Assembly: GCF_056746865.1 (NCBI RefSeq)
Contig: NZ_CM163382.1
Length of the DNA stretch: 64,000 nt
Direction: 5' to 3' (one strand)
Part shown: piece by piece, positions 42,318 to 42,450 of the stretch
Position numbering within the stretch: position 1 is the stretch's first letter
Layout of the letters: each line of letters opens with the position of its first letter
Notes under the pieces: model-generated
What the model was told of the DNA's origin: nothing
The model's input: only the letters and a program-made list of their open reading frames with translations
Databases searched by the model: none
Program-made: the position numbers and the translations under genes

Positions 42318-42450
42318 ACCTTTTAAAGTTATATTTAATATACATGTTTAAGGTTAAGACGCTTAACGCGGGGATAAAAGGGATTTTTCATGCAACTTTA
42401 AGGGAGATTGATTTAGCGCAATTTTGGCGGCAGGGATCTACCGCCAGAGA
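42318..42450 (-). promoter_or_regulatory. hcp-hcr promoter region with an FNR-like site (TTGCGCTAAATCAA on the minus strand) and an AT-rich imperfect palindrome (candidate NsrR site)
   Basis: TTG-N8-ATCAA half-site arrangement read on the minus strand; the hcp operon is known to be FNR/NsrR controlled. Confidence 0.4.

Follow-up and report, generated by a model that had tools for sequence, protein, structure and literature searches.

FNR and NsrR sites in the hcp–hcr promoter region of Escherichia coli

The lysO–hcp intergenic region

We analysed a contiguous stretch of 64,000 nucleotides (the window), which is E. coli chromosome: a 271-bp query taken around the hcp promoter matches 5,424 of 5,426 complete E. 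coli genomes, the genes beneath the match being lysO and hcp. The gene order on the minus strand is aqpZ, lysO (ybjE), hcp, hcr and poxB. The interval of interest, positions 42318–42450, covers nearly the whole of the 143-bp lysO–hcp intergenic region and is the regulatory region of the E. coli hcp–hcr operon, which encodes the hybrid cluster protein and its NADH reductase. This is the known hcp–hcr promoter with its published FNR and NsrR sites, and as such an ordinary finding. In the alignment with K-12 MG1655 the intergenic region is 100% identical, and all differences between the two strains fall within the coding end of lysO. Hence, sites that were mapped in K-12 apply to the window base for base. 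The features discussed below are collected in Table 1.

Two possible starts are found for hcp. Its longest open reading frame begins with a GTG at 42317, 6 nt 5′ of the annotated ATG (42311), and an upstream hcp start was apparently chosen when CFT073 was first annotated.

Table 1. Features of the lysO–hcp intergenic region, ordered from hcp towards lysO; positions are those of the window.
Feature	Sequence	Position	Strand	Basis
hcp start codon	ATG	42309..42311	-	RefSeq annotation, open reading frame
Shine–Dalgarno sequence of hcp	AAGG	42322..42319	-	conserved AAAGG in alignment
Main NsrR operator	AACATGTATATTAAATATAACTT	42348-42326	-	exact published site, ChIP summit, PWM, conservation
Inferred hcp transcript start		42342	-	computed from FNR centre 42414.5 and published -72.5
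Probable -10 hexamer	TAACCT	42351..42356	-	invariant first T, TAnnCT kept
Upstream NsrR-like 23-mer	AAGTTGCATGAAAAATCCCTTTT	42398-42376	-	second-best NsrR PWM match in window
FNR-binding site	TTGCGCTAAATCAA	42421-42408	-	sequence, Myers 2013 Table S6, PWM, conservation
Stem-loop	TGGCGGTAG-ATCC-CTGCCGCCA	42446-42425	-	fold energy, covariation, RNAalifold
Candidate NarL/NarP site	TACCTCT-CT-GGCGGTA	42454-42439	-	two mismatches to TACYYMT-NN-AKRRGTA, conserved
lysO stop codon	TAA	42457..42455	-	

The NsrR operator and the FNR box

The main NsrR operator is an 11-1-11 inverted repeat, AACATGTATAT-T-AAATATAACTT, centred at 42337, 26 bp 5′ of the hcp ATG. The 23-mer is an imperfect palindrome in which 7 of 11 positions are symmetric about the central T, and its half-sites (12.3 and 12.9 bits) match the repeat AAGATGCATTT-N-AAATGCATCTT. 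Scored with a position weight matrix (PWM) built from 25 sites of Mehta 2015 Table 4, hcp left out, it reaches 25.4–25.8 bits, more than 92% of the published training sites, and ranks first among the ~64,000 positions of the window, where the null expectation for such a score is 0.003 per 64 kb. Sequence by itself is therefore enough for the NsrR assignment, and the site is also the published one. The hcp 11-1-11 site AAGTTATATTTAATATACATGTT, ChIP-seq positive in CFT073 (Mehta 2015, PMC5320621, Table 4), is the exact reverse complement of the window 23-mer, across which CFT073 and the window are identical, and genome-wide it comes second after ytfE alone (Mehta 2015). The ChIP summit at 967971 is 28 bp 5′ of the CFT073 hcp ATG (967943), which places it at 42339 in the window, 2 bp off the operator centre; the summit is quoted at -22, and not -28, because the CFT073 annotation seemingly took the upstream start. 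The AT-rich palindrome that the initial annotation had offered as a possible NsrR site is thus the hcp operator itself.

Expression data agree with this assignment. Transcription of hcp rises 43.7-fold with nitrate-derived NO in CFT073 (Mehta 2015, PMC5320621) and 284-fold in a Salmonella nsrR mutant, and Phcp::lacZ is in routine use as a reporter of NsrR and of cytoplasmic NO. For K-12, Mehta 2015 cites the NsrR ChIP-chip experiments of Partridge 2009.

The FNR box is centred at 42414.5, 103.5 bp 5′ of the hcp ATG and ~58 bp 5′ of the probable -10 hexamer. It reads TTGCG-CTAA-ATCAA and so agrees with TTGAT-N4-ATCAA at 8 of the 10 specified bases with correct spacing, both mismatches falling in the promoter-distal half. 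An FNR-type box on the minus strand upstream of hcp had been proposed in the initial annotation; the string given there was right, but its notation, TTG-N8-ATCAA, was not, since the N8 pattern misses the site and N6, the equivalent of TTGAT-N4-ATCAA, finds it. As a sequence the box does not stand out. TTG-N6-ATCAA occurs twice in the window, once in the hcp box (3.85 matches expected), and TTGAT-N4-ATCAA with up to two mismatches 47 times (34.6 expected). With a PWM built from 61 ChIP-positive sites of Myers 2013 Table S6, from which hcp and the in-window aqpZ/ybjD site were left out, the box scores 12.76 bits and ranks fourth in the window, 1.5 equal-or-better positions being expected per 64 kb; it lies at the 8th percentile of the ChIP-positive sites, which range from 11.7 to 21.2 bits.

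As nothing in its sequence sets the FNR box apart, its assignment rests on position, ChIP and conservation. Table S6 of Myers 2013 (PMC3688515) lists TTGATTTAGCGCAA, which is the plus-strand form of the window box, as the hcp FNR site, with a '+' for an FNR ChIP-seq peak and a PatSer score of 13.11. In the same paper, Table 1 gives -72.5 as the position of the site, with reference to Filenko, Browning & Cole 2005, and hcp–hcr is scored as FNR-activated in expression data. The FNR site as first read from the sequence is therefore identical in K-12, where it lies under a ChIP-seq peak. For both regulators the mapped sites coincide with the strings picked out initially and do not lie elsewhere in the region, and the known anaerobic and nitrosative control of hcp, with which the initial annotation had matched them, is borne out by FNR and NsrR occupancy and by derepression in the cited data.

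Conservation was followed across species. The genome collection was scanned with the first 200 residues of Hcp, which gave 80 loci from Enterobacterales, Pasteurellaceae, Aeromonas and Shewanella, and the 300 bp 5′ of each hcp locus was scanned with the hcp-excluded FNR and NsrR matrices. Over the 80 loci the best scores averaged 13.1 bits for FNR and 22.2 bits for NsrR upstream of hcp, versus 1.7 and -2.6 bits in coding controls. The FNR box lies 101.5–111.5 bp 5′ of the ATG in most Enterobacterales loci scanned, apart from a few outliers, and the NsrR 23-mer 24–31 bp 5′ of it in most Enterobacterales, with 21–29 bits; in most cases 77.5 bp separate the two centres. When 35 genera are aligned, invariant columns are seen in the ATCAA half of the FNR box, at the first T of the probable -10 hexamer (42356) and in the NsrR box. 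In Aeromonas a consensus FNR box lies equally far from the ATG, but there is no strong NsrR site. Pasteurellaceae have neither box, but strong NarP-type 7-2-7 boxes, which Rodionov 2005 likewise describes; for eight enterobacteria the same paper predicted an FNR box followed downstream by the palindrome gATGyAT-N5-ATrCATc. The 80-locus comparison thus documents an FNR–NsrR architecture at nearly fixed spacing across Enterobacterales, with a NarL/NarP-type box and a lysO hairpin that are limited to core Enterobacteriaceae.

A separate observation concerns the non-consensus half of the FNR box. TTGCG is kept exactly in most Enterobacterales genera (loci L004–L062) despite fully diverged flanks, and a few lineages replace it by TTGAG, TTGAT, TTGTT or TTAAT. 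Its retention suggests that selection keeps the FNR site weak, or that some other function overlaps it.

Elements between lysO and the core promoter

Three elements of the region, a 7-2-7 box, an NsrR-like site upstream of the main operator and a conserved hairpin 3′ of lysO, had been overlooked in the initial annotation. The 7-2-7 box lies directly 3′ of the lysO stop codon and reaches 4 bp beyond the interval. Its left heptamer is perfect, both mismatches being in the right one. The centre, at 42446.5, is 32 bp 5′ of that of the FNR box, which corresponds to -104.5 if the FNR site is at -72.5; this is reportedly also where Chismon et al. 2010 places the NarL/NarP site of the hcp promoter. 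Matches of equal quality number six in the window against 2.8 expected, which is not significant on its own. TACYYCY-NN-GGCGGTA is nevertheless kept 133.5–140.5 bp 5′ of the ATG in most core Enterobacteriaceae (loci L004–L036), and its spacing to the FNR box is fixed at 32 bp in most of these loci; the box is absent upstream of hcp in the scanned loci of Yersinia, Serratia and Dickeya. Induction of hcp by nitrate and nitrite depends on NarL and NarP, according to the passage of Rodionov 2005 that cites Filenko 2005.

The right heptamer overlaps the left arm of a stem-loop in the lysO 3′ UTR, whose 9-bp stem starts 9 nt past the lysO stop. The predicted fold has an energy of -21.9 kcal/mol (z = -5.0). 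Over 33 core Enterobacteriaceae, 94.3% of cells are paired, versus 27–67% in slid-partner controls; four pairs have changed on both sides, a number that none of 500 shuffles reached, and RNAalifold recovers the same helix. One pair alternates between U·G (17 sequences), U-A (12) and C-G (1). This is compatible with RNA of the lysO sense strand, whereas the opposite strand would have a C·A mismatch. The stem-loop is probably a lysO 3′-end hairpin. No U-tract follows it and a terminator scan of 42200–42600 was empty, which rules out a canonical intrinsic terminator; an Rfam search of the same segment at a permissive threshold returned no family. An outer helix, GCGUAAU/AUUGCGC, in which the lysO stop region would pair with the left half of the FNR box, was set aside as a chance pairing: it is not conserved, and the lysO end differs in Citrobacter.

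The NsrR-like element, AAGTTGCATGA-A-AAATCCCTTTT, is centred at 42387 (~-45), with the FNR box on one side and the -35 region on the other, 50 bp from the main operator. It scores 17.7–17.9 bits, for which the null expectation is 0.08 per 64 kb. Its halves are unequal, the left good (9.57 bits) and the right poor (7.98 bits), and NsrR half-sites of at least 9.5 bits are common, with 35 in the window against 37 expected. The CFT073 form, AAGTTGCATTA, is the third predicted hcp half-site in Table 2 of Mehta 2015 (PMC5320621). Many genera keep the upstream block, above all Yersinia, Serratia, Hafnia, Pectobacterium and Edwardsiella; in Yersinia nurmii no NsrR match scores higher. Within core Enterobacteriaceae AAGTTGCAT drifts (Citrobacter, Enterobacter, Leclercia and Pluralibacter) and AAA..CCTTTT is constrained.

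Further matches to the same regulators lie elsewhere in the window. The best match to the FNR matrix (13.8 bits) is a box, TTGATTTAGGGCAA, at 44674–44687 in the aqpZ–ybjD intergenic region, which is ChIP-seq positive (Myers 2013, PMC3688515, Table S6) and differs from the hcp box at only one of its 14 positions; duplication as the origin of the two boxes is ruled out, as their similarity is limited to the 14-mer. A 7-2-7-like match, TAATCCTTTAGGCGTA, is found nearby at 44747–44762. An NsrR-like 23-mer, AAGTTGCAATTAAAAGGAAATGT, at 43426–43448 lies ~72–94 bp 5′ of the annotated lysO start (43354) and scores 15.3–15.6 bits, with a null expectation of 0.29 per 64 kb. This 23-mer is similar to the upstream hcp element and turned up as an inverted-repeat pair; we found no link between lysO and NsrR in the literature. 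Finally, ATGTTGTACTAAAAATCGATGTT at 61226–61248 (13.7 bits) is the trxB NsrR 11-1-11 site of Mehta 2015 (PMC5320621, Table 4), so that a second published NsrR target promoter lies within the window.

How far do other readings account for these elements? On consensus counts and PWM score, the FNR box could be a chance FNR-like match, with anaerobic induction of hcp being indirect or running through another site. An FNR ChIP-seq peak nevertheless lies on the identical sequence, hcp–hcr is FNR-activated in expression data, no better FNR match occurs within 300 bp upstream of hcp, and in most Enterobacterales scanned the box keeps its distance to both the ATG and the NsrR site while the flanks diverge. 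Chance is thus a highly improbable explanation, one that is close to refuted. The 7-2-7 box raises a similar question, because its match is not significant on sequence and GGCGGTA doubles as the left arm of the covarying hairpin: TACYYCY-NN-GGCGGTA might be conserved only through the hairpin and the lysO end, with NarL/NarP acting elsewhere or indirectly. Kosakonia, in which the hairpin is present and TAC and GTA are missing, would fit this. Against it, the left heptamer, which lies outside the hairpin, keeps TAC and its pyrimidine-rich positions (TACYYMT) while the adjacent lysO end varies, and the spacing to the FNR box is fixed. Moreover, Pseudescherichia and Escherichia sp. ESNIH1 have no hairpin, yet carry a better 7-2-7 box, TACCCCT-TT-AGGGTTA, with one mismatch at the same distance. 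Kosakonia with the hairpin only and Pseudescherichia and ESNIH1 with the 7-2-7 box only show that the two elements are separable and merely overlap in E. coli. The site was reportedly placed at -104.5 in the 2010 work of Chismon and co-workers, and NarL gel shifts on the hcp promoter were reportedly part of the 2007 work of Filenko and co-workers. We therefore regard conservation through lysO alone as unlikely and prefer a NarL/NarP site.

More is to be said for repression from two operators, in which NsrR would bind both at the start and at the upstream element, there blocking the -35 region or the path from FNR to the α-CTD of polymerase. The element is the second-best NsrR match in the window at only 50 bp from the main site, its CFT073 form is a predicted half-site within the hcp ChIP peak (Mehta 2015), and it is conserved in many genera, up to being the top match in Y. 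nurmii; single 11-bp half-sites were reported sufficient for NsrR binding in Partridge 2009, in so far as it is cited by Mehta 2015. The poor right half, and the fact that half-sites of the quality of the left one are common in the window, weigh the other way. The constrained AAA..CCTTTT next to the drifting AAGTTGCAT in core Enterobacteriaceae is better accounted for by a -35 or UP-like role, and the ChIP summit lies on the main operator, at a resolution too low to part sites 50 bp apart. On these sequence data a role as an A/T-rich -35 region or α-CTD contact is no less likely than one as a second operator. Two-operator repression is thus a tentative reading, and its corollary, that the main operator alone would fall short of full repression, is equally doubtful. 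A second NsrR operator may already be covered by the 2010 work of Chismon and co-workers. A still more speculative proposal, which we hold to be somewhat less probable, would combine a working second operator, blocking the start and cutting the contact between FNR and polymerase, with coupling of lysO and hcp through the DNA shared by the hairpin and the NarL/NarP box. If true, one stretch of DNA would provide both the 3′-end structure of the lysO RNA and an activator site for hcp.

Proposed control of hcp–hcr and comparison with known promoters

The core promoter appears to be weak. The probable -10 hexamer matches TATAAT at three of six positions (T1, A2 and T6) and ends 3 bp 5′ of the NsrR operator; the first T of the conserved TAnnCT is the invariant column at 42356 across 35 genera. 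A scan of 42200–42600 found no consensus sigma-70 promoter, which fits a promoter that needs an activator. From the published position of the FNR site we infer a transcript start 31 nt 5′ of the ATG, uncertain by ~2 bp. This lies 9 nt past the proposed -10 hexamer, which is rather far; if it is correct, the NsrR operator would span about -6 to +17. Myers 2013 (PMC3688515) reports no sigma-70 ChIP peak at hcp–hcr and cites dependence on sigma-E, and inspection of the region by eye gave no convincing match to a sigma-E promoter of the type GGAACTT-N16-TCAAA. Induction of hcp by OxyR-SNO has been reported and is contested.

These features suggest the following model. The weak core promoter, with TAACCT as -10 and without a consensus -35, would need an activator. 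When oxygen is absent, [4Fe-4S]-FNR bound at -72.5 would recruit RNA polymerase from a class I-type upstream position, and nitrate or nitrite would increase FNR-dependent transcription through NarL/NarP, probably at the 7-2-7 box. Because the operator begins 3 bp past the probable -10 hexamer and would cover the start, [Fe-S]-NsrR bound there should occlude polymerase and shut the promoter. Damage to the NsrR cluster by NO would cause NsrR to leave, derepressing the operon. The outcome would be an AND-type gate that opens when oxygen is absent and NO or nitrite is present. We consider it very probable that FNR activation, NarL/NarP and repression by NsrR together explain the hcp–hcr promoter; within this scheme, occlusion by NsrR and the assignment of NarL/NarP to the 7-2-7 box are what we infer from the layout of the sites.

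The closest known system is the hcp–hcr promoter of E. coli K-12, which has the same locus, intergenic sequence, FNR 14-mer, NsrR 23-mer and gene order. There is no difference inside the regulatory region, only the lysO coding end differing. This promoter, treated in Filenko, Browning & Cole 2005, Filenko et al. 2007 and Chismon et al. 2010, is one of the standard models of combined control by oxygen, nitrite and NO. The discovery value of the present finding is accordingly small; it does mean that real operator sites were placed from raw sequence by the initial annotation.

Comparison with other promoters of the same regulators brings out what is particular to hcp. The ytfE and hmp promoters carry an 11-1-11 repeat of the AAGATGCATTT type over the core promoter, as hcp probably does, and like hcp are ChIP-positive and derepressed by NO. 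The hcp operator is more A/T-rich than theirs, with ATGTAT and ATATAA instead of ATGCAT, and hcp, unlike ytfE and hmp, adds an upstream activator site for FNR at -72.5. In nirB, nrfA and napF an FNR box is combined with an upstream 7-2-7 NarL/NarP box, and these promoters respond to anaerobiosis and to nitrite or nitrate. FNR is at about -41.5 (class II) in such promoters and at about -64.5 in napF. In hcp, by contrast, FNR is at -72.5 with the candidate NarL/NarP site at -104.5, and an NsrR operator is added at the probable start.
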